Shown in pieces: positions 12,251-60,865 of a stretch of 64,000 nucleotides of DNA. Source of the DNA: Candidatus Coprosoma sp. (lineage in GTDB: Bacteria; Bacillota_I; Bacilli_A; RF39; UBA660); NCBI GenBank assembly GCA_963928595.1, contig CAWVFK010000025.1:4070-68069 (forward strand), in the 5' to 3' direction. Position numbers and translations under genes: made by a program. Below the pieces are notes generated by a model. It worked only from the letters and a program-made list of their open reading frames with translations. It ran no database searches and had not been told where the DNA came from. Position 1 is the first letter of the stretch. The number at the start of each line of letters is the position of its first letter.

Positions 12251-12310
12251 ACTATCACCTAGATTAAATTATACGTTCTTTAAGGTTAGGTGTCAATAAT
12301 GAAGGGTTAC

Positions 12311-12348
12311 ATTCTCCAAAGATTCCCATATTTTGTCAATGTGTAAAT
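12311..12348 (+). repeat. copy A of a ~38-nt intergenic repeat
   Basis: ATTCTCCAAAGATTCCCATATTTTGTCAATGTGTAAAT. Related copies lie at 23631..23670 (minus), 58660..58697 and 58783..58821. Confidence 0.7.
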
Positions 12349-12417
12349 GATATATTTTATTTTAACTTTTGCTCCCTGTGATTTGTCTTTATGTTAAAAC
12401 TATGTTATGATGTATAT

Positions 12418-12532
12418 AGATGAAGAAAACTTCATAAAATATTAAAGGAACATTCAATAATCCGATGTTGAGTGTTGCCACATATAATTGTGTATCACCT
12501 AAATCATTGGATGAGTTAGGTGATTTTCTTTT
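12418..12532 (+). ncRNA. putative antisense (antitoxin-like) small RNA, copy 1
   Basis: TTGTCT-N17-TGtTATGAT promoter (12383..12411). Hairpin ATGAAG/CTTCAT (12420..12435). Hairpin AACATTCAA/TTGAGTGTT. Terminator ATCACCTAA/TTAGGTGAT plus a T-run (12494..12532). No ORF. The ends are predicted, not mapped. Confidence 0.55.
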
Positions 12533-12615
12533 ATATTATTAATATAAATAGTAGAAATACAAGTAGGAAGGTAAGAATGACTAAAGAAAGAATTAAAATA
12601 ATTTTTCTTATTCAT
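12531..12615 (-). pseudogene. type I toxin-like small hydrophobic ORF, apparently disrupted by a 1-nt insertion in an A-run
   Basis: ATG 12615 behind AGAGAGG gives MNKKNYFNSFFSH, which is not hydrophobic. The +1 frame reads (I)RKIILILSLVILTFLLVFLLFILII* and ends at 12531. Removing one A from AAGAAAAAT (12601..12609) restores MNKKIILILSLVILTFLLVFLLFILII. Confidence 0.45.
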
Positions 12616-12742
12616 TATATTGCCTCTCTTCTAAATAGAGGTTTTGTCTCACTAAACTTACTGAATATTTCTTAATACAATTATAAAAAATAATTATATA
12701 AAATAATATATTATACTTTGTAAAAAATGGATGTGATAATTT

Positions 12743-16429: not shown

Positions 16430-16632
16430 AGTAAATCGATGACAAAGATTAGTAGTATAATTATTATTTTATAGAGAGTTAGTGGTTTGGTGGAAACTAA
16501 CAAATAACTTTATATGAATCTACTTTGGAGAGAAGTTTAAAACACTTCCGGGATGACCGTTATCATAATTAAGACAGCCGTATAGGATGGTACCGTATTG
16601 CATATACTCCTAACACCAGGCTGTCTTTTGCT
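16430..16632 (+). promoter_or_regulatory. T-box riboswitch leader, serine specifier (UCU)
   Basis: TTGACG-N17-TAGAAT promoter (16395..16423). GATGA/AGTA K-turn and S-turn elements. Lower stem CAAAG (16443..16447) / CTTTG (16523..16527). Specifier loop GAA-TCT-A with the codon at 16519..16521. T-box sequence GGATGGTACCGTA (16585..16597). Terminator AAGACAGCC / GGCTGTCTT plus Ts (16571..16630). Confidence 0.85.
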
Positions 16633-23630: not shown

Positions 23631-23670
23631 TATTTACACTTTTCGCAAATTTTAGGAATCTTTGGAGAAT
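23631..23670 (-). repeat. copy C of the ~38-nt intergenic repeat
   Basis: The reverse complement reads ATTCTCCAAAGATTCCTAAAATTTGCGAAAAGTGTAAAT. Lies between the polC terminator and the Fic promoter. Confidence 0.65.
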
Positions 23671-23683
23671 CTTACTATTAATT

Positions 23684-23719
23684 AAAAAAAGATGACTTTC
23701 TTTAATGAAAATCATCTTT
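23684..23719 (-). terminator. rho-independent (bidirectional-looking) terminator after polC
   Basis: AAAGATGA (23688..23695) / TCATCTTT (23712..23719), flanked by an A-run and a T-run. Immediately downstream of the polC stop (23722..23724). Confidence 0.65.
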
Positions 23720-28474: not shown

Positions 28475-30649
28475 CTATTTTAAGACCTTCGTTTTCGGTT
28501 TTGATAATTCTTTGTAGTTTAGATTGAAGTAAACTATTCTATGAGGTATCGATACTTCTTTAATTAGGACATATACCCTTTCACCTAATCTTAATTTATT
28601 ATTGTGACCGATTGCTTTAGCGTGGGCAAGATCAGATGGCGTGACATGACCAATGACATTATTGTCTAGTCTAATTTCGGTATCATATGGTGTCATATTA
28701 ATAATTCGGCCGGCATAAATTTTGCCACTATCTGATTCATATTCTCTTTGCATGTATTCAGCCATTTTTAAATCTAATGTTTCTTTTTCGGCCTGATCAG
28801 CTTCTCTTTCCATAAATGAATCGTGTTCACATATTTCTGGAAGTGTTTGATAATAATTCAAAAGAGTTGGAATGTCATATTGTTGATATGGATTAGTTAA
28901 GCGATGAACCATTAAGTCAGGGTGTCTTCTAATTGGTGAAGTAAAATGAGTATAATAGGTTAATCCTAAACCATAATGTCCTTCGCATTCTGGAGCATAT
29001 TTAGCTTTACTCATACTTGTTAAAATCAAATGAGAGATAATTGGATAATTTTCATGACCTTTGAAATAATCTAAGAAGAAACTGAGGTCGTTAGAATTAT
29101 AATGACCATTTTTTATTTTATTAATCAAGATATCAATTGTTTCTTTAGAGCATATTTTTTCTTTTTTTAGTGTTTTTAAAGCTTCTATAAGGTGATCATC
29201 ATTTGGATTACCATGAACACGATATACCTGAGGAGTGTCTAACCACTTATGATATTCAGCGACACTAGTGTTGGCGGCAATCATAAAGTTTTCTATTAAT
29301 CTTTCAGCAGTATTTTGATGACGAGCTTCAAATTTTAATGCTTCACCAGTTGGTGAGGTAATAACTTTTACTTCATCAGAGGCAAAGTCTAACTTTCCTT
29401 CCTTTTTACGATTTCGTGTTAGAATTTCTGACAATTCTTCCATGATTTTTAAGGTTGGAACAAACTCTTCATAACCGCTTGGAATAATATTCTTTTCTAA
29501 TATTTGATTAACATCGTCATAATTCATTTTCTTTCTCGAATGAATAACACTATCATATATTTGGTAATCTAAGATTTCACCTGATTGAGAAATAAGCATA
29601 TCGACGGTTTTAGTTAAGCGATCGACTCCTTCATTTAGTGAACAAATACCATTAGATATTTGATGAGGGAACATTGGAATTACAGAATCAGCTAAATAAG
29701 CCGAAGTTCCTCTTTTTCTAGCTTCGATATCAAGAGGGCTATCCTCTTCAATATAATGACTGACATCGGCAATATGGACACTTAAAATATAATGTCCATC
29801 TAAGGTTTTCATAATACTTATAGCATCATCCATATCCTTGGTGTCTTTACCATCAATGGTGAAGATTTGTCTATCTCTTAAATCAACCCTACCTTCTAAG
29901 TCTTCTTTCATAACTCTATCTGGAATAGTTTTTAACTGCTCGATAACTGCTTCTGGAAATTCTTTGAAGAAACCGTGTTCTGCAGCTATTGTAGCTATTT
30001 CAATATCTGGATCATCTTTATGTCCAACAACTTTTTCAATGTGCCCTTCAAAAACCGATTTGTTTTCAATAACAGCAATGCGCTCTTTATCAACAGTAAC
30101 AAGTACTCTATTACCAGTGACTAACTGTCTTAATTCTTCTTTTGGACATATAACTGTGACATTGCCATGAATAGTATATGGAATGAATTCGCCGTCACCA
30201 ACATATTCAAAGATTGTTTTGCCATTAGCTCTTTTAACTATCTTTTCGACTTCAGCATCGGCATAATTGGTTTTTCCATGATGAATATTTCTTAAAACAA
30301 CTATATCGCCTTCTAAGGCTCCGTTTAAGTGTTCCTCGTTTATTAAATATTTAGTTTTACGACCTTTATATTCAACAAAAACAAAGCCACTACCCATACG
30401 GTTAATATGAATCTCACCTTGAACTTTACCTAATTGTTTTGCATCAAATTTTTTATAATAACCATCATCATCGAGATAAATTTCGCCTTTTTCTTCTAGC
30501 TCATTTAAGGCATTAATAAAAGAAGCTTGCATGGTTTCTCCTTTGACGTGCATAGCCTTTCGGAGTTCATCCACAGTAAGCTTCTTTAAATCTACATTAT
30601 TCATAATTTCTGTTTTGATATCTTCAATGTTTTGTATTTCTTTTGTCAT
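28475..30649 (-). CDS. rnr: ribonuclease R
   Basis: 724 aa with cold-shock-like OB folds, an RNB catalytic domain (FTIDGKDTKDMDDAIS, HFTSPIRRHPDLMVHR) and a C-terminal S1 domain. Confidence 0.93.
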   Translation of the reverse strand: MTKEIQNIEDIKTEIMNNVDLKKLTVDELRKAMHVKGETMQASFINALNELEEKGEIYLDDDGYYKKFDAKQLGKVQGEIHINRMGSGFVFVEYKGRKTKYLINEEHLNGALEGDIVVLRNIHHGKTNYADAEVEKIVKRANGKTIFEYVGDGEFIPYTIHGNVTVICPKEELRQLVTGNRVLVTVDKERIAVIENKSVFEGHIEKVVGHKDDPDIEIATIAAEHGFFKEFPEAVIEQLKTIPDRVMKEDLEGRVDLRDRQIFTIDGKDTKDMDDAISIMKTLDGHYILSVHIADVSHYIEEDSPLDIEARKRGTSAYLADSVIPMFPHQISNGICSLNEGVDRLTKTVDMLISQSGEILDYQIYDSVIHSRKKMNYDDVNQILEKNIIPSGYEEFVPTLKIMEELSEILTRNRKKEGKLDFASDEVKVITSPTGEALKFEARHQNTAERLIENFMIAANTSVAEYHKWLDTPQVYRVHGNPNDDHLIEALKTLKKEKICSKETIDILINKIKNGHYNSNDLSFFLDYFKGHENYPIISHLILTSMSKAKYAPECEGHYGLGLTYYTHFTSPIRRHPDLMVHRLTNPYQQYDIPTLLNYYQTLPEICEHDSFMEREADQAEKETLDLKMAEYMQREYESDSGKIYAGRIINMTPYDTEIRLDNNVIGHVTPSDLAHAKAIGHNNKLRLGERVYVLIKEVSIPHRIVYFNLNYKELSKPKTKVLK

Positions 30650-31431: not shown

Positions 31432-32487
31432 TTAAGCTTCTTTTAATTTTCTGTTTTGGTCTTCGGTAATTAGAGCTTCAATAATATCGTCCAAGTTGCC
31501 TTCCATAACTCTATCTAAGTTCTTAGTGGTATAGCCAATACGGTGATCAGTAACTCTATTTTGTGGATAGTTATATGTTCTGATTTTTTCTGATCTATCA
31601 CCAGTACCAATTTTACTTCTTCTTTCTGAACCTAATTTTTCTTCTTGTTCTCTTAGTTTTGCTTCATAAAGACGGGTTCTTAGCATCTGCATAGCTTTTT
31701 CTTTATTTTGAATTTGGCTTCTTTCATTTTGACAAGTAACAACAGTATTAGTTGGCAAATGAGTAATTCTAACGGCACTATCTGTGGTGTTGACGCATTG
31801 TCCACCAGCTCCAGTACTTCTATAAACATCGATTCTTAAGTCACCAGGATTGATTTCAACATCGACTTCTTCGGCTTCTGGCATAACTAGGACAGTCGCC
31901 GTTGAAGTATGGACTCTACCTTGGGTCTCGGTTACTGGAACTCTTTGAACTCTATGAGCACCTGATTCATATTTCAATTTTGAATAAACATTATCACCTT
32001 TAACCATGAATTCAACTAATGGATAGCCGCCAGCATCAGAATGTTCTTCAGATAATACTTCGATTTTCCAGCCTTGTTTTTCAGCATATTTGGTATACAT
32101 TCTATATAAGTCACCCGCAAAGATATTAGCTTCATCGCCACCAGCAGCTCCTCTGATTTCAACGATAACGTTTTTACCATCGTTTGGATCTTTTGGAAGT
32201 AAAAGAACTTCAATCTCACTTTCTAGCGTTTCTTTTTCTTTATTTAATCTGTTTATTTCCTCTTTGGCGAATTCTCCTAATTCGGAATCTTTAGTCATCT
32301 CTTTAGCTTCTTCTAAATCAGATTCTATTTTTTTATATTTTTGATATGCATCGTAGGCATCTTTTAGAGAAGCTTGTTCTTTAGATAATTCTAAAGTCTT
32401 TTTAATATCACTTAGAACTTCCGGTTTACTGAGTTCACTAGAGAGCTCATTATATTTTTCTTCAATCGCGATTAATCTTTCTATCAT
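31432..32487 (-). CDS. prfA: peptide chain release factor 1
   Basis: 351 aa with a PxT-type region and a GGQ motif ([23 protein letters not shown]). TTGCTT-N17-TATAAT promoter upstream. Confidence 0.97.
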
Positions 32488-32682
32488 TTCTCATCACCTT
32501 TTTCGCAATAAAATTATACTATATTTTATGGCTTTAAGCAAATGTGTATATCTGTTTCAATTATTTAACAACTTGGAATTTTCTTGTTGAAAACAATATA
32601 ACTATTTGTTATACTTATGTGTAAGGAATATTTAATAGTTGGGCGCGGCCTCTACTCTTTTACAAGAATGGAGGTGGTGTTT

Positions 32683-32760
32683 ATGACTAAAAGAGATAAC
32701 TATTTCTTTTTCATAATTCTACTTCTATTTATTTTAGTATTCACTTTACTATATAAATAG
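32683..32760 (+). CDS. type I toxin-like small hydrophobic peptide, copy 2 (MTKRDNYFFFIILLLFILVFTLLYK)
   Basis: Not in the ORF track (25 codons). TTGAAA-N17-TGtTATACT promoter (32587..32615), about 60-nt leader, GGAGGTGG SD (32670..32677). The N-terminus MTKR is shared with copy 3. Confidence 0.6.
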   Translation: MTKRDNYFFFIILLLFILVFTLLYK

Positions 32761-32872
32761 AAACCGACGCCTAACTCATCAACAGTGAATTAGGCGTCCA
32801 AACACTTTTTGGTCACGTTCAACATTTGCGTATTGAATGTTCCTTTTTTATATTATGAAGTTTCCTTCGTCT
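32755..32872 (-). ncRNA. putative antisense (antitoxin-like) small RNA, copy 2
   Basis: TTGCCG-N17-TAAAAT promoter (32879..32907, minus strand). Same block order as copies 1 and 3 (GTATATAGACGAAGGAAACTTCAT ... AAAGGAACATTCAA ...). Terminator GACGCCTAA/TTAGGCGTC (32766..32798), with a T-tract that overlaps the toxin stop. Confidence 0.55.
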
Positions 32873-32952
32873 ATATACATTTTATCATAAATTTAACTTT
32901 ACGGCAAATACAAATATTTAATGTATGTTTGCTTTTTTTTAATTGAATGTTT

Positions 32953-33942: not shown

Positions 33943-35925
33943 ATGGAAAGAAAAAAGATAAAAAAAAGCAAGAAGTCAAAAAAATGGTTATTTATTATTA
34001 TTGGAGTTATTCTCTTTTTTATTATTCTTTACTTCGGTATATATTTATATGCACGTATGCAGCCAAAATTACCAATAACTGGGGCGAACGGATATCATTT
34101 ATACGATATTAATGGTGATGTATATACTGCAAGTTCGGATAAAACGGTTAGTTTAGATGAGATTTCTGATGATTTAATTAATGCGACAATTTCGGTTGAA
34201 GATAAAAATTTTTACAAACATCAAGGATTTGACTTTTTAAGAATTATTAAAGCTATGATGGTCAATTTAACTTCTGGGGAAACTTTACAAGGCGCTTCAA
34301 CAATTACTCAGCAATATTCTAAAAATTTATTTTTAGATTTTGACAAAACTTGGGACAGAAAGATTAAGGAGGCATGGATTACAATTAGATTAGAAGCTCA
34401 TTACAGCAAAGATGAGATTTTGGAAGGTTATTTAAATACGATTAATTATGGCGGGATATTTGGGATTGAAAATGCTTCTAAATATTATTTTAACAAGAGT
34501 GCGAAAGATTTGAATTTAGCTGAGGCAAGCATGCTGGCGGGGATACCAAAAAATCCTAGTAAATATTCGCCTTTAGTTGATGAAGAAAGTGCGAAATCAA
34601 GGCAAAAGATTATTTTAAATTCAATGGTAAAAAATGGATATATAACACAAAACCAAGCAGATGCGGCTTATAAAACTAAACTTAATTATGAAAAGAGTGA
34701 AGATAGTGATAATTTGAAAATGATGATGTATTATCAAGATGCGGTGATGGAAGAGTTAAATTCAATTAAGACCATTCCCTCTTCCTTTTTAGAAACAGGT
34801 GGACTTAAAATTTATACTAATTTAGATATTGAGGCTCAAAAGGCTTTAGAAGACAGTGCGAATAAAAACATTACTAATCCCGATATTCAATTGGCGGGTG
34901 TGGTGATGGATCCACAAACCGGTAAAGTTTTAGCCCTTTCAGGCGGAAGAGATTATAACAAGAGTCAATATAACCGAGCAACCATGGCTAAAAGACAAGT
35001 TGGTTCAACAATTAAACCATTCTTATATTATTCGGCTTTAGAAAATGGTTTTACACCATCGACAACGTTTACTAGTGAAAAGACAACATTTAGTTTTTCA
35101 AATAATAAAACTTATACGCCGAAAAATTACAATGATGAATATGCGAATGGGCCGATAAGTTTAGCGGCAGCAATCAGTTATTCTGATAATATTTATGCGG
35201 TTAAAACACATCTATTTTTAGGTGATGATGCTTTGCCTGATATCTTAAAGAGAGTTGGTATTAATGAAGAGTTGAATACCTTGCCTTCTTTAGCGTTAGG
35301 AGCAGAAGAGATAAATATGATGGATATGATGGCAGCTTATAGTGCTTTAGCTAATGAAGGATATAAAATTGAGCCATATTTTATTAGTAAGGTTACCGAC
35401 ATGGAAGGAAATGTTTTATACGAATATAAACCTAATCCAGAAAATGTTTTAAATAAAAATACGGTATATATTTTAAATGAACTTTTAACGACTACTTATG
35501 CGAAAGAATTTAAAGATTATAATACACCAACATGTCTTAGTATTGAGCCCAAAATGACACACAAATATGCCTTAAAATCAGGAACAACAAATACCGATAA
35601 TTTGATTTTTGGTTATAATAAAGAGCTATTAGTTGGAATGTGGACAGGATATGACGATAACAAAGATGTTTCTAGTCAAGATAGTTCGAATTTAAAAAAT
35701 GCTTGGGTTGATATTATGGAAACATATTTAGAAGGTAAAACTGATGAGGAAACATGGTATGAAACACCAAGTAATGTTGTTGGGGTGGCGATTGATCCGA
35801 TTAGTGGTAAAGCGGCTACTGATAGTTCGAAAGCTAAAATTTTGTATTATATAAAAGGAACTGAACCAACTGAAAATAAAAGTTCCTTGGATGAAGCTAT
35901 TCCAACGGTAAAAGTAGAAGAATAA
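33943..35925 (+). CDS. class A penicillin-binding protein (glycosyltransferase + transpeptidase)
   Basis: TM anchor, GT51 motifs (ISVEDKNFYKHQGFD, GASTITQQYSKN, RKIKEAW) and a transpeptidase SxxK (GSTIKPF). Confidence 0.9.
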   Translation: MERKKIKKSKKSKKWLFIIIGVILFFIILYFGIYLYARMQPKLPITGANGYHLYDINGDVYTASSDKTVSLDEISDDLINATISVEDKNFYKHQGFDFLRIIKAMMVNLTSGETLQGASTITQQYSKNLFLDFDKTWDRKIKEAWITIRLEAHYSKDEILEGYLNTINYGGIFGIENASKYYFNKSAKDLNLAEASMLAGIPKNPSKYSPLVDEESAKSRQKIILNSMVKNGYITQNQADAAYKTKLNYEKSEDSDNLKMMMYYQDAVMEELNSIKTIPSSFLETGGLKIYTNLDIEAQKALEDSANKNITNPDIQLAGVVMDPQTGKVLALSGGRDYNKSQYNRATMAKRQVGSTIKPFLYYSALENGFTPSTTFTSEKTTFSFSNNKTYTPKNYNDEYANGPISLAAAISYSDNIYAVKTHLFLGDDALPDILKRVGINEELNTLPSLALGAEEINMMDMMAAYSALANEGYKIEPYFISKVTDMEGNVLYEYKPNPENVLNKNTVYILNELLTTTYAKEFKDYNTPTCLSIEPKMTHKYALKSGTTNTDNLIFGYNKELLVGMWTGYDDNKDVSSQDSSNLKNAWVDIMETYLEGKTDEETWYETPSNVVGVAIDPISGKAATDSSKAKILYYIKGTEPTENKSSLDEAIPTVKVEE

Positions 35926-35935
35926 AAAAACATTC

Positions 35936-37189
35936 CTATTTTTGGGAATGTTTTTCACTTTGTAATTTTTTTAAACTATTATTATAAAATATCAAAATAT
36001 ATTTGGTTATTTCATTTTGATTAGCAAATGTTACTCCATTATCTTTTAAATTTTCAAACATAGCCTCATTGCCTTTATTAGCTTTAATGTTGTTTTCAGT
36101 AACAAATGTTTCAAATAGAGGATCAATTAACAATTGATTTGTTTTATTAATATTGCCACTTTGATAACTAGCAATAACAAAAGCGTGTGGTTCTAATAAC
36201 TGTTCGAAGAAATAAACATTTAAAACTTGGGCAGTAATGTCTTTTTCATCCAAGTAATCTTTAATCATTGCAGCTATCTCTTCATCCAAACTATAGTGAT
36301 TTGGTATAGATGGTAATTCATTTTTAATCTTTTGAACTAATTTAATAATAGTCTTTGGTGACGATTTTTTCTGCGCTCCATAGATATAATCATTTTCTAA
36401 TTCAATTATAGAATCACATATTTTATAATAATAAAAGTTAATAATTGATGAATAATCTTGTTCCTCACCAATCGCTTTTTGCATAGCTTTTCGATATGTA
36501 TCATTCTCACTACTTGAAATATATATCGGTGGCAAGCCAACATCTATAAATAATTTGTTTATAAAGGCTCTAATGGTACGACCATTACCATCAAAAAATG
36601 GATGAATTTTAATTAAATGACATTTTAACATAATACATTTATCAATATATTCAAATAGATGACCCGGATTATGTTTAATTTCTTCGCCTAAAGCAATAAT
36701 ATTTTGGACATCACCATCTAATTCTTTGATTTCTTGCCAAATGCTTCGCCAATCTGATAAATTGATACCAGTGTTTGGTAAATATACATTATCGTTTCGA
36801 AAATGCCCACTATTTTCAGGGAATGGAGCTTTAGAAAATAGTTTTTTGTGTAAATCAAGTAAGGTATAAATATCAAAGTGTTCATTTATTTCATCTGATA
36901 ATAAATATTCATACATTTCTTTTAAGCCGTCTTTTTCATATTTTAGATGAGCATCTTCTAGTATTGACTCACAAGCTATGTAATGTCTTAAAAAATCTTC
37001 AGCAGTTTGATTTAAATGACGTCTATTTTCATCTAATTGATAGTAAAACATCAATAATCTTTTAGGAACTACTAATCCATTTTTACCATCCTGATATAAT
37101 TGTCTAGTCCTTCTTCTTTCAATATAATCAAAAAATAATCCTTTTAAAATTTCTACTAATTCATCTTGATTGGTTATAATTCCACCCAT
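35936..37189 (-). CDS. Fic-family protein with a ~170-aa C-terminal extension
   Basis: Canonical motif HPFFDGNGRTIRAF. Start set at MGGIITNQ (ATG 37189) behind AGGTGA. Confidence 0.85.
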   Translation of the reverse strand: MGGIITNQDELVEILKGLFFDYIERRRTRQLYQDGKNGLVVPKRLLMFYYQLDENRRHLNQTAEDFLRHYIACESILEDAHLKYEKDGLKEMYEYLLSDEINEHFDIYTLLDLHKKLFSKAPFPENSGHFRNDNVYLPNTGINLSDWRSIWQEIKELDGDVQNIIALGEEIKHNPGHLFEYIDKCIMLKCHLIKIHPFFDGNGRTIRAFINKLFIDVGLPPIYISSSENDTYRKAMQKAIGEEQDYSSIINFYYYKICDSIIELENDYIYGAQKKSSPKTIIKLVQKIKNELPSIPNHYSLDEEIAAMIKDYLDEKDITAQVLNVYFFEQLLEPHAFVIASYQSGNINKTNQLLIDPLFETFVTENNIKANKGNEAMFENLKDNGVTFANQNEITKYILIFYNNSLKKLQSEKHSQK

Positions 37190-37260
37190 TTTCATCACCT
37201 TGCGAGGTGTATTTTAACAGAATAATATATTTTCGTCAAGAAAAAAAGCTACATGTGTAG

Positions 37261-47984: not shown

Positions 47985-49079
47985 CCGGCATTCCTCCTTA
48001 AATTAGCATTGATAAATTTATCTAAATCACCATCCATTACTTTATTTACATTAGTTTCTTCACAATTTGTTCGATGATCTTTAACTAATGAATATGGATG
48101 CATAACATAACTTCTAATTTGAGAGCCAAAATTAATATCTCTTTGTTCACCCTTTAACTGCTGTAATTCTTTTTTCTTGTTTTCTTCTTCTATTTCATAT
48201 AGCTTACTTTTTAAAATCTGCATGGCTTTGGCTTTATTTTGAACTTGGCTTCTTTCGTTTTGACAAGTTACAACAATACCGGTAGGCAAATGGGTTATTC
48301 TAACGGCACTATCAGTGGTGTTTACGCTTTGACCGCCGGCTCCACTACTGTGAAAAACATCGATCTTTAAATCTTTTTCGTTGATATCTACTTTAACTGT
48401 ATCATCGATGACTGGAGTAACACTAACCGAAGCAAATGAGGTATGTCTTCGAGCTCCTGAATCAAATGGAGAAATTCGAACTAAACGATGAATTCCTTTT
48501 TCATTTTTTAAATATCCATAAGCATATAATCCTTTAACAATAATAGTGATGCTCTTTATACCGGTTTCTAGACCTGGTTGTTCATCGACAACTTCTAGTT
48601 TGTAATTTTTCTTTTCAGCATATCTTGTATACATTCTATAAAGCATATTAGCCCAATCGCAAGCTTCAGTGCCACCGGCACCAGAATGTATTTCTAAGAC
48701 AGCATCATTTTTATCATACTCACCACTTAGAAGGACCATAGTTTCAACTTCATCGATTTTAGGTTTAAGAGTTTTACTTTCTTCTTCAATCCAGGCTATA
48801 CTTTCTTCATCATTAAGTTCTAATGCTTTAGCCATTTCTAAATAATCTGCCACTTCATCTAATAGGTTTTTAACATCGTTTAGAACTTTTTTTTCACTAT
48901 TTAATAAAGCAATAACTTCTTCGCTGTGTCTTGTGTCATCCCAGAAATTTGGAGCTGACATTTCATTTTCTAGTTCTTTTATCTTTGATTGTTTACTTTC
49001 GGGGTCAAAGTGACCTCCATAGATCTTGCAGTTTATCTAAATATTTTTCATATAAATTTATAGCTTCTTTTAGTTCCAT
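47981..49079 (-). CDS. prfB: peptide chain release factor 2, requires a programmed +1 frameshift
   Basis: Frame 0 is ATG 49079, encoding MELKEAINLYEKYLDKLQDLWRSL, then TGA at 49007..49005. The +1 frame continues DPESKQSKIKELENEMSAPNFWDD into the 326-aa track ORF with SPF and GGQ ([24 protein letters not shown]). Confidence 0.93.
49004..49019 (-). promoter_or_regulatory. prfB +1 frameshift site (GGAGG ... CUU UGA C)
   Basis: The minus strand reads TGGAGGTCACTTTGAC. An internal SD-like GGAGG (49018..49014) lies 3 nt before the CTT (49010..49008) TGA (49007..49005) C. Confidence 0.9.
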
Positions 49080-58654: not shown

Positions 58655-58659
58655 GTATT

Positions 58660-58697
58660 ATTCTTCAAAGATTTCTATATTTTGACAATATGTAAAG
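58660..58697 (+). repeat. copy D of the ~38-nt intergenic repeat
   Basis: ATTCTTCAAAGATTTCTATATTTTGACAATATGTAAAG. Confidence 0.65.
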
Positions 58698-58782
58698 CTA
58701 AAGCTTTTTGTTTATATTAGTGGCTTTTTACTTTATCTTAATAAGATTATTTTATAGTTTATTTTGTTTATTTAATTACCAC

Positions 58783-58821
58783 ATTCTCCAAAGACTCCCA
58801 TATTTTGCGAAAAATGTAAAG
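58783..58821 (+). repeat. copy B of the ~38-nt intergenic repeat
   Basis: ATTCTCCAAAGACTCCCATATTTTGCGAAAAATGTAAAG. Lies next to the rny terminator hairpin GAAGC/GCTTC. Confidence 0.7.
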
Positions 58822-58834
58822 AAAAAAGAAGCCG

Positions 58835-60388
58835 TTATTTAGCTTCTTCGGTTACTCTAGTTTCTCTTACAACAACAACTTTAATTGTACCTGGATATTG
58901 TAAGCTTTCTTCAATTTTGTTTTTAATTTCTCGAGCTACTTTATGACTTTCTAAGTCATCGATTTCTTCTGGTTTAACGATAATCCTAAGTTCTCTACCA
59001 GCTTGTACAGCATAAGCTTTTTCAACACCCTCAACTTCATTACCAATTTGTTCTAGTTCGGTTAATCTCTTAATGTAATTTTCTAATGAATCATTACGAG
59101 CTCCTGGACGAGATGCTGAAATAGTATCAGCAATGGCAACAATACTACTAATAATACTAGTTGGCTCGGTATCACCATGGTGTGATTCAATAGCATTAAT
59201 AACAATTTCGTTTTCACCATATTTTCGAACTAGGTTAGCACCTAATTCGACATGGCTACCTTCAACTTCATGGTCGATGGCTTTACCAATGTCATGTAAT
59301 AATCCAGCTCTTTTAGCGAGAGTTATATTTTCTCCTAATTCACCAGCTAAAAGTCCAGCTAAATTAGCTACTTCTAGTGAGTGTTTTAAAGCATTTTGTC
59401 CATAACTTGTTCTGAACTGTAATTTACCAATTGTTTCTACAAGTTCAGGTTCCATTTTAGTTATACCTAATTCAAACAAGGCATTATTACCGATTTCAAT
59501 CAACTCTGCTTTCATTTCTTTAACCGTTTTGTCATAAACTTCTTCAATACGACTAGGATGAATTCTACCATCTTTAATTAATGTTTCTAGAGTAAGTCTA
59601 GCGATTTCTCTTCGGTAAGGATCAAAACTTGATAGAACTAAGGCTTCTGGGGTATCATCAATGATTAGATCGACACCAGTAACCGCTTCAATAGTTCTAA
59701 TATTTCTACCTTCTCTTCCGATAATACGGCCTTTCATTTCATCATTTGGCAAAGTTACAACTGTAACTGTTTGCTCGCCAGCAATGTCAGCAGCATATCT
59801 TTGCATAGTACTAACTAACATTTCTTTAGAACTTTTATCAGCTTGTAATTTAGCTTCGGCTTCACGGTCTTTGATATATGAAGTTATTTCTAAATTCATC
59901 ATTTCTTCGACTTTTTTCATAATTAGTTCTCTAGCTTGTTTTTTAGTATAGCCGGCTATTTTTTCAAGTTGTTTTAATTGTTCTTCTTTTGTTTCTTCTA
60001 ACTCCAATTGCTTTTCTTGAATCTCTTTTTGCTTAAGTATCAAATTGTTTTCTTTGTCTTCTAACATTTGTTCTCTATTTTGAAGAGTTTGGTCACGACG
60101 ATCCATACTCTCTTCACGTGCTAAAAGACGTTCTTCGGAGTCTTTAATTTCTTGTTTCTTTTCTTTTGTTTCTTTATCTAATTCAACTTTTAATCTATGA
60201 TTTTCTTCTTTAGCTTCTAAAATGCTATCGCGTTTTAATTTATCGGCTTCCTTTTTTGCATTATCAATTAAACTTTGTACTTTTTTGGAAGCGTTCATTA
60301 ATTTAATAGAATTTAAAATTATCATAAAGATAATACCAACAAAAAGACCAATTAAGATCAGCAATATGGAGAAAACAATATTGTTCAT
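58835..60388 (-). CDS. rny: ribonuclease Y
   Basis: N-terminal TM, a long coiled coil, a KH domain ([12 protein letters not shown]) and an HD domain (LLHDIGKA). TTGACT-N17-TACAAT promoter upstream. Confidence 0.96.
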
Positions 60389-60518
60389 ATTTTACCTCCA
60401 TACGGGAACTCTCTCCCTAATTCTATTGTAAAGGTAATATAGTGAGAAGTCAAGAAAAAATATTTTGACGATTTGGGCATTCCTTGAAAAAAAGTTAATT
60501 TTGTGTTATGATGTATAT

Positions 60519-60637
60519 AGATGAGAGAAATCTCATAAAATAAGAAAGGGAACATTCAGTTTTGTCTTGCCTGAATGTCTACCCAATTACATTTGTATAG
60601 ACATTTAATTCGTCATGAATTAAGTGTCATTTTTTTA
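60519..60637 (+). ncRNA. putative antisense (antitoxin-like) small RNA, copy 3
   Basis: TTGAAA-N17-TGtTATGAT promoter (60484..60512). Hairpins ATGAGA/TCTCAT (60521..60536) and ACATTCAG/CTGAATGT (60552..60578). Terminator GACATTTAATTC/GAATTAAGTGTC plus T7 (60600..60636). No ORF. Confidence 0.55.
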
Positions 60638-60719
60638 TGGCGATTACCAATAAGGTAAGGAGCAATAAAATGATAGTAACATACCTTAGAACCCTTAGTA
60701 CAAAAGTTCTTTTAGTCAT
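60627..60719 (-). CDS. type I toxin-like small hydrophobic peptide, copy 3 (MTKRTFVLRVLRYVTIILLLLTLLVIAIKK)
   Basis: Not in the ORF track (30 codons). TTGTAT-N17-TATAAT promoter (60785..60813), about 65-nt leader, GAGAGGAGG SD. The stop TGA (60629..60627) lies under the terminator of the convergent RNA. Confidence 0.6.
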   Translation of the reverse strand: MTKRTFVLRVLRYVTIILLLLTLLVIAIKK

Positions 60720-60865
60720 TATTATCAAACCTCCTCTCTATAAGAGATTCGGTAGACACTCAACAACTGATATTCCCTATATAAATTATACTATATAACT
60801 ATTCGTTATACAAGCGGATTTTAACAATTTGTTTTTTTCACAAATTAAAAAGGACATTTATGTCC

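Follow-up and report, generated by a model that had tools for sequence, protein, structure and literature searches.

The 64,000-nucleotide (nt) window analysed here, a stretch of contig CAWVFK010000025.1 of Candidatus Coprosoma sp., contains three copies of a small genetic module. The second copy, located between prfA (TIGR00019, 532 bits) and rpoE (RNA polymerase delta subunit; TIGR04567, 67 bits), is the subject of this report and probably belongs to a hitherto undescribed family of chromosomal modules resembling type I toxin-antitoxin systems. On the plus strand, a 25-codon open reading frame (ORF) for a hydrophobic peptide, well below the 60 residues used as a criterion for type I toxins, is equipped with its own promoter (32587-32615) and Shine-Dalgarno (SD) sequence (32670-32677). 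A convergent promoter on the minus strand would direct the synthesis of a structured small RNA (sRNA) antisense to the 3' part of the putative toxin mRNA. The first-pass annotation of this DNA had proposed a functional unit of two transcripts rather than a chance hairpin, and comparison with related loci strongly supports the reading as a hydrophobic ORF with a convergent antisense RNA: the sRNA, both promoters, the SD-ATG arrangement and the small ORF recur together in 77 loci, compensatory changes preserve the sRNA helices, and substitutions in two of the three peptide families point to coding sequence.

The region has a GC content of 29.6%. The window shares 93% identity over 4.5 kb with Firmicutes bacterium CAG:822 (HF990868.1) and 94-98% identity with six gut-metagenome contigs that encode an identical RpoE protein. 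CAG-822 is a GTDB genus in the family CAG-822 of the order RF39 (PMC8035907), a group of uncultured Bacilli with reduced genomes that is frequent in gut metagenomes (PMC6784871). The ORF, the SD sequence, both promoters and the sRNA terminator were all found where the first-pass annotation had placed them (Table 1). The ORF listing gives a longer frame starting at position 32617; relatives conserve the SD-proximal ATG at 32683 instead. The 25-residue ORF is the sole conserved ORF in the predicted toxin mRNA, and its product has a basic N-terminus (MTKRD) and one hydrophobic helix, contains no proline or glycine, and ends in ...LLYK.

Table 1. Features of the module between prfA and rpoE and of its two paralogues, in window coordinates.
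Feature	Position	Strand	Details
Toxin promoter	32587..32615	+	TTGAAA-N17-(TGt)TATACT; promoter scan, TG before the -10 box
Predicted toxin mRNA	32622..32850	+	~229 nt; start placed from the -10 box, 3' end from H2' and its U-tract
5' untranslated region (UTR) lock element	32625..32650	+	GGAATATTTAATAG/TTGGGCGCGGCC; complementary to 32811-32843
Anti-SD/SD hairpin	32649..32677	+	CCTCTA at 32649-32654, SD GGAGGTGG at 32670-32677; minimum free energy (MFE) fold
Putative toxin ORF (family C)	32683..32760	+	25 codons, ATG 32683, TAG 32758-32760; MTKRDNYFFFIILLLFILVFTLLYK
H2' hairpin and U-tract	32811..32854	+	Hairpin 32811-32843, U-tract 32844-32854; presumed toxin-mRNA terminator, 3' arm of the lock
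Predicted antisense sRNA	32752..32876	-	~125 nt (hairpin 1, hairpin 2, small spacer stem, terminator); ends approximate, from prediction
sRNA intrinsic terminator	32766..32798	-	Hairpin GACGCCTAA...TTAGGCGTC + GGTTTCTATT, then GGTTTCTATTT (32765-32755)
sRNA hairpin 1	32855..32871	-	5' hairpin (GAAG-GAAA-CUUC), outside the overlap with the toxin mRNA
sRNA promoter	32879..32907	-	TTGCCG-N17-(TGa)TAAAAT; promoter scan, extended -10 box with TG before it
Paralogous copy 1	12381..12700	sRNA +; toxin remnant -	sRNA 12412-12554; family A, degraded UTR lock
Paralogous copy 3	60491..60810	sRNA +; toxin ORF -	sRNA 60513-60658; ORF 60627-60719, MTKRTFVLRVLRYVTIILLLLTLLVIAIKK; family B

Relatives were sought in contigs representing one genome per species with the pattern TCATAANATAN{5,6}GGAACATTCA, which was taken from the conserved minus-strand RNA. 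This pattern matched 90 stretches, of which 77 were true modules and 13 were chance matches in coding regions (Bacteroidota and others). All 77 loci lie in metagenome-assembled genomes (MAGs) labelled as uncultured Bacilli, Tenericutes, Erysipelotrichaceae or Firmicutes, including CAG:822 and CAG:433, with human, goat, roe deer, rabbit, mouse and cattle guts as the sources. According to a profile search, these loci hold 96 copies of the sRNA, and 17 of the 77 carry two or three modules arranged head to tail with a period of 320-420 nt. An SD sequence and an ATG followed by a hydrophobic ORF of 25-32 residues were identified opposite the sRNA in 54 of the 73 assessable modules.

The predicted sRNA of copy 2 has a folding z-score of -4.5, and the nhmmer profile built for the sRNA matches positions 32878-32745 (E=1e-24). 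In the relatives, the elements follow one another in the same order, i.e. -10 box, GTATATAGATGA, hairpin 1, A-rich linker, hairpin 2, variable spacer and terminator, and the extended -10 box lies at a constant distance upstream of GTATATAGATGA in nearly all of them. Promoter-like hexamers are expected by chance at this GC content (four in the interval, compared with 3.2 expected), so that the conserved position in relatives is the real evidence for the promoters. The terminator, which overlaps the end of the toxin ORF and its 3' UTR, was the sole site found by a terminator scan of the interval (one, compared with 0.2 expected). In an alignment of 79 sequences, 96% of the cells in the three sRNA helices are paired, compared with 24-43% when the partners are slid against each other. 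Nine pairs show compensatory changes, and the observed values were reached by none of 500 shuffles. Among them are six of the seven pairs of the terminator helix and the inner two pairs of hairpin 1 (AU/GC/GU and GC/AU). Because the 3' arm of hairpin 1 and the 5' arm of hairpin 2 had been fixed by the search pattern, most of the independent covariation comes from hairpin 1's inner pairs and the terminator. Even where the pattern had left positions free, the A-rich linker is conserved. In two MAGs (L024:4320-4464 and L049:3741-3885), the sRNA is cut short inside its terminator by the same foreign sequence (..ATTGTACCCyATAAAATGGACACGATAGTGG..), which looks like the end of an insertion sequence; next to it in L024 comes an ORF's 3' end, which by eye alone may be that of a transposase.

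The sRNA is perfectly complementary to the final ~100 nt of the toxin mRNA, a region that includes the last codons, the 3' UTR and the mRNA's own presumed terminator. With the predicted ends, the overlap spans 32752-32850 (~99 nt), and the duplex energy of the cognate pair is -179 kcal/mol. Between the 5' domain of the sRNA and the translation initiation region of the toxin, no conserved complementarity was detected in 49 modules (mean -7.1 kcal/mol, compared with -5.1 kcal/mol for shuffled sequences). A second contact of this domain with the toxin ribosome-binding site, as in SprA1as or par, is thus unsupported, and the non-overlapping 5' hairpin is more likely a 5' stabilizer. The succession of hairpin, hairpin and terminator also resembles a cis-regulatory leader (a riboswitch or attenuator) of a downstream gene, and the 3' arm of hairpin 2 has a possible alternative partner in the terminator's 5' arm, noticed by eye and in agreement with RNAalifold. 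The RNA, however, runs into the 3' end of the convergent ORF in every module, with no gene downstream on the same strand. The leader reading was rejected for this reason. In addition, the neighbours beyond the module differ between copies, and Rfam yielded no matching family either at the gathering threshold or at E<=10; we regard a leader as extremely improbable.

The peptides encoded opposite the sRNA sort into three families on one common RNA scaffold. Family A (27-29 residues, consensus M[NS]KKDFLILSLVIIIFLLLFLLFIVLI) is the type of window copy 1, family B (30 residues, consensus MKKRxFxIKxLRYISIILLLLxxxVIVIKK) that of copy 3, and family C (25 residues, MT[KQ]R[DE]...) that of copy 2. A basic N-terminus and a single hydrophobic span are common to all three, and for this reason the families may be diverged homologues. 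The variability at codon positions 1, 2 and 3 is 0.30, 0.11 and 0.40 in family A and 0.32, 0.20 and 0.44 in family B, a sequence pattern that is the one expected of a translated hydrophobic peptide. A metagenome scan with the SD/start pattern of family C yielded further members of that family (MTKRDNYFFCIILLLFILVFTLLFK, MTKREKALYAIISLLFILIFIILFK and MTQRETFLSFIIILLFTLVFILLFR), together with 20 unrelated matches; in genomes and metagenomes combined, its seven distinct ORFs have exactly 25 codons each and identical SD sequences and stop codons. Searches of five peptides against Pfam and NCBIfam gave no meaningful match, and no toxin family even at E<=10. None of eight representative peptides was present in an exact look-up among ~15 billion predicted proteins; gene callers systematically miss such genes of 25-30 codons.

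Two side observations were made among the ORFs. In one family B module (L093:1415-1559 and downstream), ATT replaces the start ATG (GGAGGTGGTATTATTAAAAAACGA...), which is either a non-canonical start or an inactivating mutation. The family C pattern also matched an unrelated ORF of 13 codons (MEQSSVKGHHKEP and variants), which is well conserved, has a conserved region upstream, comes from environmental metagenome contigs (L098, L101, L104-L106, L108, L109, L114, L116, L118, L119, L121 and L124-L126) and may encode a leader peptide.

The toxin mRNA is conserved as a unit in its own right, with the corresponding nhmmer profile matching 32625-32850 (E=6e-39). Its 5' UTR shows the same order of elements in all three peptide families, namely the -10 box, 5-7 nt, (A)GGAACATTTAATAGTTGGGTG(N)TGCC, an anti-SD stem, GGAGG and ATG; in ~50 related modules, a matching -10 box is located 5-7 nt upstream of the conserved GGAAC element. 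The first-pass annotation had suggested that an upstream CCTC(T) could sequester the SD, and this agrees with the MFE fold of copy 2, in which CCUCUA pairs with UGGAGG and the predicted unpaired probability of the SD is 0.03. The median of this probability is 0.13 across the modules, compared with 0.38 in 14 ordinary genes of the window (Mann-Whitney p=0.015). At the other end, the minus-strand complement of the H2' hairpin and its U-tract corresponds to hairpin 2 and the A-rich linker of the sRNA. On the toxin strand, the hairpin 2 complement is followed by UUUUUUAUUUUAU, a tract that is likewise conserved at pattern-free positions. H2' and the U-tract would be the terminator of the toxin mRNA, and such a role would explain the conservation of the A-rich linker in the sRNA.

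In the MFE fold of the copy 2 mRNA (32621-32852, -76.8 kcal/mol; -75 to -77 overall), the 5' end closes onto the 3' end, the extreme 5' sequence (GGAAUAUUUAAUAGUUGGGCG.CGGCC) pairing with the 3'-terminal hairpin region. This 5'-3' lock corresponds to an inverted repeat of ~26 nt around the ORF at the DNA level and to an mRNA whose 5' end is complementary to its own 3' end at the RNA level. Apart from the loop, which it lacks, the UTR lock element is identical in sense sequence to hairpin 2 of the sRNA (GGAACATTCAAT...GTTGAGTGTTGCC). Long-range pairs between the first 35 and the last 75 nt, 12-32 bp in number, are present in the MFE folds of 49 of 50 distinct predicted mRNAs. In an alignment-free comparison, the mean energies of the 5'/3' duplexes were -33.3 kcal/mol for cognate ends, -23.7 kcal/mol for ends from different families and -10.8 kcal/mol for shuffled 5' segments. 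When the inverted repeat was read on the opposite strand, the value was -25.0 kcal/mol, and the toxin strand paired better in 50 of 52 cases. This asymmetry comes from G.U pairs (one column is U.G in 39 of 49 sequences), and it argues that selection has acted on the toxin RNA and not on a repeat in the DNA. Compensatory variants of the lock also occur, i.e. GGAATGTTCAAT/ATTGAACATTCC in L100 and L111 and GGATATATTTAATT/AATTAGATATATCC in L117.

A ~320-nt multi-copy unit with a ~26-nt inverted repeat between the UTR element and hairpin 2 could in principle be a non-coding repeat, either similar to a miniature inverted-repeat transposable element (MITE) or formed by back-to-back terminators of the neighbouring genes, in which the ORF would be fortuitous; the lack of a third-position excess in family C would fit such an origin. 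The strand-specific pairing, however, speaks for selection on RNA rather than DNA, as the G.U pairs of the toxin strand turn into A.C when the opposite strand is read. All three families keep the ORF, SD and start in the same position, codon position 2 is much less variable than positions 1 and 3 in families A and B, and both promoters are conserved outside the repeat. The copies within one genome have diverged to ~50-80% identity, unlike recently transposed MITEs, and the flanking genes differ between copies, so that the hairpins are not terminators of particular neighbours. The MITE reading was rejected on the grounds of strand-specific G.U pairing and the coding signals, and a non-coding repeat of either kind appears very unlikely.

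The nhmmer profiles for the sRNA and the toxin mRNA each identified exactly three copies of the module in the 64 kb (E values from 1e-24 to 1e-42). The block-for-block likeness of copy 2 to copies 1 and 3 that the first-pass annotation had reported was recovered in these searches and in two inverted matches, a 100-nt arm of copy 2 being 78% complementary to 12381-12480 and a 59-nt arm 80% complementary to 60491-60549. The 24-mer GTATATAGACGAAGGAAACTTCAT has two matches, compared with 0.00 expected. The annotation was also correct in that the RNA blocks are better conserved than the peptide, since one scaffold accommodates three peptide families; the blocks are better conserved because they are structural, comprising the hairpins of the sRNA as well as the terminator and the 5'-3' lock of the toxin mRNA. 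Its suggestion that each RNA neutralizes only its own toxin is doubtful. Cognate sRNA/mRNA pairs have predicted duplex energies of -168 to -179 kcal/mol, and copies 1 and 2 are predicted to cross-pair substantially (-81 kcal/mol for sRNA 1 with toxin mRNA 2 and -73 kcal/mol for sRNA 2 with toxin mRNA 1); pairs involving copy 3 reach about -50 kcal/mol. In copy 1, the toxin gene is a pseudogene (12499-12690, minus strand): compared with the orthologue in CAG:822 (MNKKDFLILSLVILIFLLVFLLFIVLI), one extra nucleotide has been inserted after codon 5. The frameshift yields a non-hydrophobic 38-residue ORF, and the sRNA (12412-12554) looks intact.

The spacer between rpoE and prfA differs among conspecific strains (94-98% identical). 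The 5' domain of the sRNA and both promoter regions are nearly invariant, and the cassettes that they enclose are not the same: a family C cassette is present in the window and L006, a family B cassette (MAKRTFIIKVFRYITIILFLLTTLVIVIKK) in L001, L002 and L005, and a family A cassette (MGKKDFLIFALIIIIFFLLSLLLITLI) in L003. L004 carries the family A unit of L003 from which the promoter, UTR, SD and first codons have been deleted. In L003, the module is additionally separated from rpoE by an insertion of two genes, one of the DUF285 and one of the HTH_3 type. In about a dozen of the 73 assessable modules, a clearly broken toxin accompanies an intact sRNA. Window copy 1, L004 and L061, in which the ORF has been deleted, are such cases, alongside about 10 more. 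This repeated loss of the ORF beside a retained sRNA is an indirect hint that the peptide may be toxic. Tandem arrays, cassette turnover and orphan antitoxins of this kind are typical of chromosomal type I loci.

These patterns also bear on the possibility that the peptide is a non-toxic small membrane protein, such as an accessory subunit or regulator, that is tuned by a cis-antisense RNA and forms no addiction module. The core chromosomal contexts of the modules (prfA/rpoE and rny/greA) and their absence from plasmid, phage and IMG/VR collections would suit such a protein, the toxic role itself being putative, and many small membrane proteins of Gram-positive bacteria are not toxins (see the review PMC10730256). 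A housekeeping micro-protein would not, however, be expected to occur in multiple copies and tandem arrays of varying copy number, to be represented by three interchangeable families at one locus in conspecific strains, or to decay frequently with its RNA retained. The arrays, cassette exchange, ORF decay and sequestration, with the SD doubly hidden and the mRNA closed, are hallmarks of type I toxins, and no conserved partner gene accompanies the module. We therefore consider a non-toxic membrane protein unlikely and a toxin-antitoxin-like module the better description.

With respect to known systems, Rfam searches of each copy at E<=10 returned only sub-threshold BsrG signals and noise, so that the module is absent from Rfam. 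On the toxin strand, BsrG (RF01412) was the sole model to score at all, with 17.7 bits in copy 2 and 11.9 bits in copy 3 (gathering threshold, 55), and no antitoxin model was matched. No match was obtained by blastn of the module against plasmid and phage collections, and a pattern scan of IMG/VR gave only one chance match inside a coding region. Literature searches combining RF39 or Tenericutes with type I toxin-antitoxin systems, or using the sequence motifs, retrieved no paper describing the module, and the motif is not in the first 200 of the 408 supplementary files of a catalogue of structured RNAs from the human microbiome (PMC8040213).

In architecture, the module is closest to BsrG/SR4 of Bacillus subtilis. 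In type I systems of Gram-positive bacteria, the antisense RNA lies 3' of the mRNA, the two overlapping in part (PMC8594479); in the 3'-overlap systems of B. subtilis, duplexes of 100-140 bp are cleaved by RNase III and further degraded (PMC6562991). BsrG/SR4, TxpA/RatA, BsrE/SR5 and YonT/SR6 share with the module two convergent RNAs with 3'-3' pairing over ~100-140 bp (PMC6562991, PMC8594479), a multi-stem-loop antitoxin with a terminator and an overlap extending to the end of the ORF, a partly sequestered SD and a small hydrophobic toxin peptide. Unlike BsrG, the module scores far below 55 bits in Rfam and shows no toxin sequence homology in Pfam or NCBIfam, its peptide has 25-30 residues (38 in BsrG) and is basic at the N-terminus instead of polar at the C-terminus, three peptide families have the sRNA 5' domain and the toxin 5' UTR in common, the toxin 5' end copies hairpin 2 of the sRNA, and the host is of the uncultured RF39 type, the module not being prophage-borne as far as could be tested.

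The par system (Fst/RNA II of Enterococcus faecalis pAD1; Fst/Ldr family) is also close in organization, with convergent promoters, a common hairpin just 3' of the toxin ORF and, in the Fst/Ldr family, chromosomal paralogues. The predicted SD hairpin of the module is analogous to the 5'-SL of par, which hides the SD, and the lock to the upstream helix (5'-UH), which sequesters the extreme 5' end of the toxin RNA, neither being homologous in sequence (PMC7472228). This upstream helix contributes to the stability of par RNA I (PMC7472228), and on the basis of this analogy we propose that the 5'-3' helix of the module would protect or stabilize the toxin mRNA. As regards a bidirectional terminator for both RNAs, the hairpin at 32766-32798 has a U-tract on the sRNA strand only, and the toxin strand appears to read on to H2' and U6 (32811-32854). 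Other features differ. The peptide lacks the PXXXG(C) motif and the charged C-terminal tail of Fst (PMC7472228), and the module has no repeats of the DRa/DRb type through which the sRNA could pair with the translation initiation region. The sRNA is ~125 nt long (RNA II, ~40 nt; PMC7472228), and the overlap covers ~100 nt rather than the terminator only. Furthermore, the partner of the 5' end in the module is the very region targeted by the antitoxin.

In hok mRNA, the full-length form is closed by a long-distance 5'-3' interaction, the SD is sequestered, and folding is central to control. AapA1/IsoA1 of Helicobacter pylori reportedly shares these three features (PMC5416894), and the predicted fold of the module resembles both in this respect. 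In hok/sok and AapA1/IsoA1, however, the antisense RNA is directed against the 5' region or the translation initiation region, and the mRNA becomes active through 3' trimming; the sRNA of the module overlaps the 3' end, and 3' truncation leaves the predicted accessibility of its SD unchanged. Both systems occur in Gram-negative hosts and encode peptides unrelated to those found here. Two aspects deserve follow-up: a single RNA scaffold accommodates three peptide families, and the antitoxin is mimicked by the 5' end of the toxin mRNA.

The analysis establishes the anatomy of the module, its conservation, the covariation and the predicted pairings. The working model outlined here is inferred as regards the transcription and translation of the genes, the toxicity of the peptide, the RNases at work and the regulatory direction. 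A sigma-70-type promoter (32587-32615) would drive a ~230-nt mRNA for the 25-residue peptide, which presumably inserts into the membrane and is harmful when overproduced, and the convergent promoter (32907-32879) would drive the ~125-nt structured RNA. The mRNA would be inert in two ways, its SD being buried in the anti-SD hairpin and its 5' end closed onto the 3' hairpin region. The sRNA would bind the 3' region of the mRNA, probably first via loop-loop contacts at the complementary terminator hairpins, and the resulting long duplex would be a substrate for RNase III, as in the 3'-overlap systems of B. subtilis. Because hairpin 2 of the sRNA is a sequence copy of the mRNA 5' end, binding should also evict this end from its 3' partner and would thereby remove the 5'-end protection. 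As a net outcome, the toxin mRNA would be degraded, and no toxin would be made while the sRNA is produced. More speculatively, two linked ideas may be put forward, although we give them less than even weight. In the first, antitoxin mimicry and strand displacement would expose the mRNA to 5'-dependent decay. In the second, the conserved RNA ends (sRNA 5' domain and toxin promoter/UTR) would serve as recombination handles for cassette swaps between paralogous loci and strains, and orphan sRNAs would persist to cross-neutralize incoming or paralogous toxins.

Several points weigh against the toxin-antitoxin interpretation or parts of it. Both transcripts, the translation of the ORF and the toxicity of the peptide are deduced from sequence and comparison. 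The SD and AUG are predicted to stay sequestered in the full-length, 3'-truncated and sRNA-masked states alike. With the same accessibility in all states, a hok-type translational switch operated by the lock is unsupported, and the lock probably does not act in this way; its proposed stabilizing role is an analogy. In the RNAalifold consensus, the terminator hairpin's 5' arm takes over as the partner of the UTR element's second half, a pairing that covaries too (GC 30, AU 12, GU 5), so that alternative conformers are likely and the geometry given for the lock is tentative. H2' with its U-tract fails a simple terminator scan, as it has only two G-C pairs, and both the 3' end of the mRNA and the extent of the overlap are consequently predictions. 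In family C, to which copy 2 belongs, the variability at the three codon positions is flat (0.20, 0.21 and 0.20), with no third-position excess. Its seven distinct ORFs are closely similar and too few for the codon-position test, and coding constraint is visible only in the kept frame, length, SD and hydrophobicity. Lastly, the relatives were found through the sRNA sequence, so that modules lacking the sRNA are invisible and the reverse case to the orphan antitoxins, a toxin with no sRNA, is uncountable.

Several other features of the window were recorded. A gene for an RNB-domain protein (RNase R-like; 28475-30649, minus strand) is located two genes away from copy 2, and the gene for RNase Y (RNase_Y_N, KH and HD domains; 58835-60388, minus strand) directly adjoins copy 3. 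RNase R-like and RNase Y enzymes both act on type I toxin and antitoxin RNAs in B. subtilis; the closeness of the two genes to copies 2 and 3 is probably a coincidence. Within prfA, a 210-nt stretch (31633-31842) is directly repeated with 76% identity at 48164-48373 in a second release-factor-like gene, presumably prfB. A 420-residue Fic-domain protein (35936-37198, minus strand; PF02661 in orthologues) is encoded beside a PBP1A-type gene (33943-35925). A T-box leader (16430-16614, plus strand; RF00230, 93.6 bits) is the sole Rfam match in the window at the gathering threshold. A second, unrelated element of ~45 nt (ATTCTCCAAAGATTCCCATATTTTG..AA..TGTAAA) is present in four copies (12297-12335, 23646-23690, 58658-58684 and 58781-58827). 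Since its opposite strand contains TTGACA-N17-GAGAAT, the element may act as a common site for a promoter or regulator. One copy, at 12297-12335, is situated upstream of a gene on the minus strand that begins MKKNGFTLIELLAVIVI (pseudopilin/ComGC-like by eye).

Bacilli of the RF39 type are uncultured, have reduced genomes and are prevalent gut inhabitants (PMC6784871), and their RNA biology is almost unstudied. If the interpretation given here is true, they would harbour a lineage-wide, multi-copy family of type I toxin-antitoxin modules that was found from sequence. With ~100 natural variants, whose covariation already defines the fold of the sRNA and the 5'-3' lock, the family would be a convenient system for studying how mRNA folding and a 3'-overlapping antisense RNA cooperate, and the cassette polymorphism at a single locus is a potential strain marker in metagenomes.

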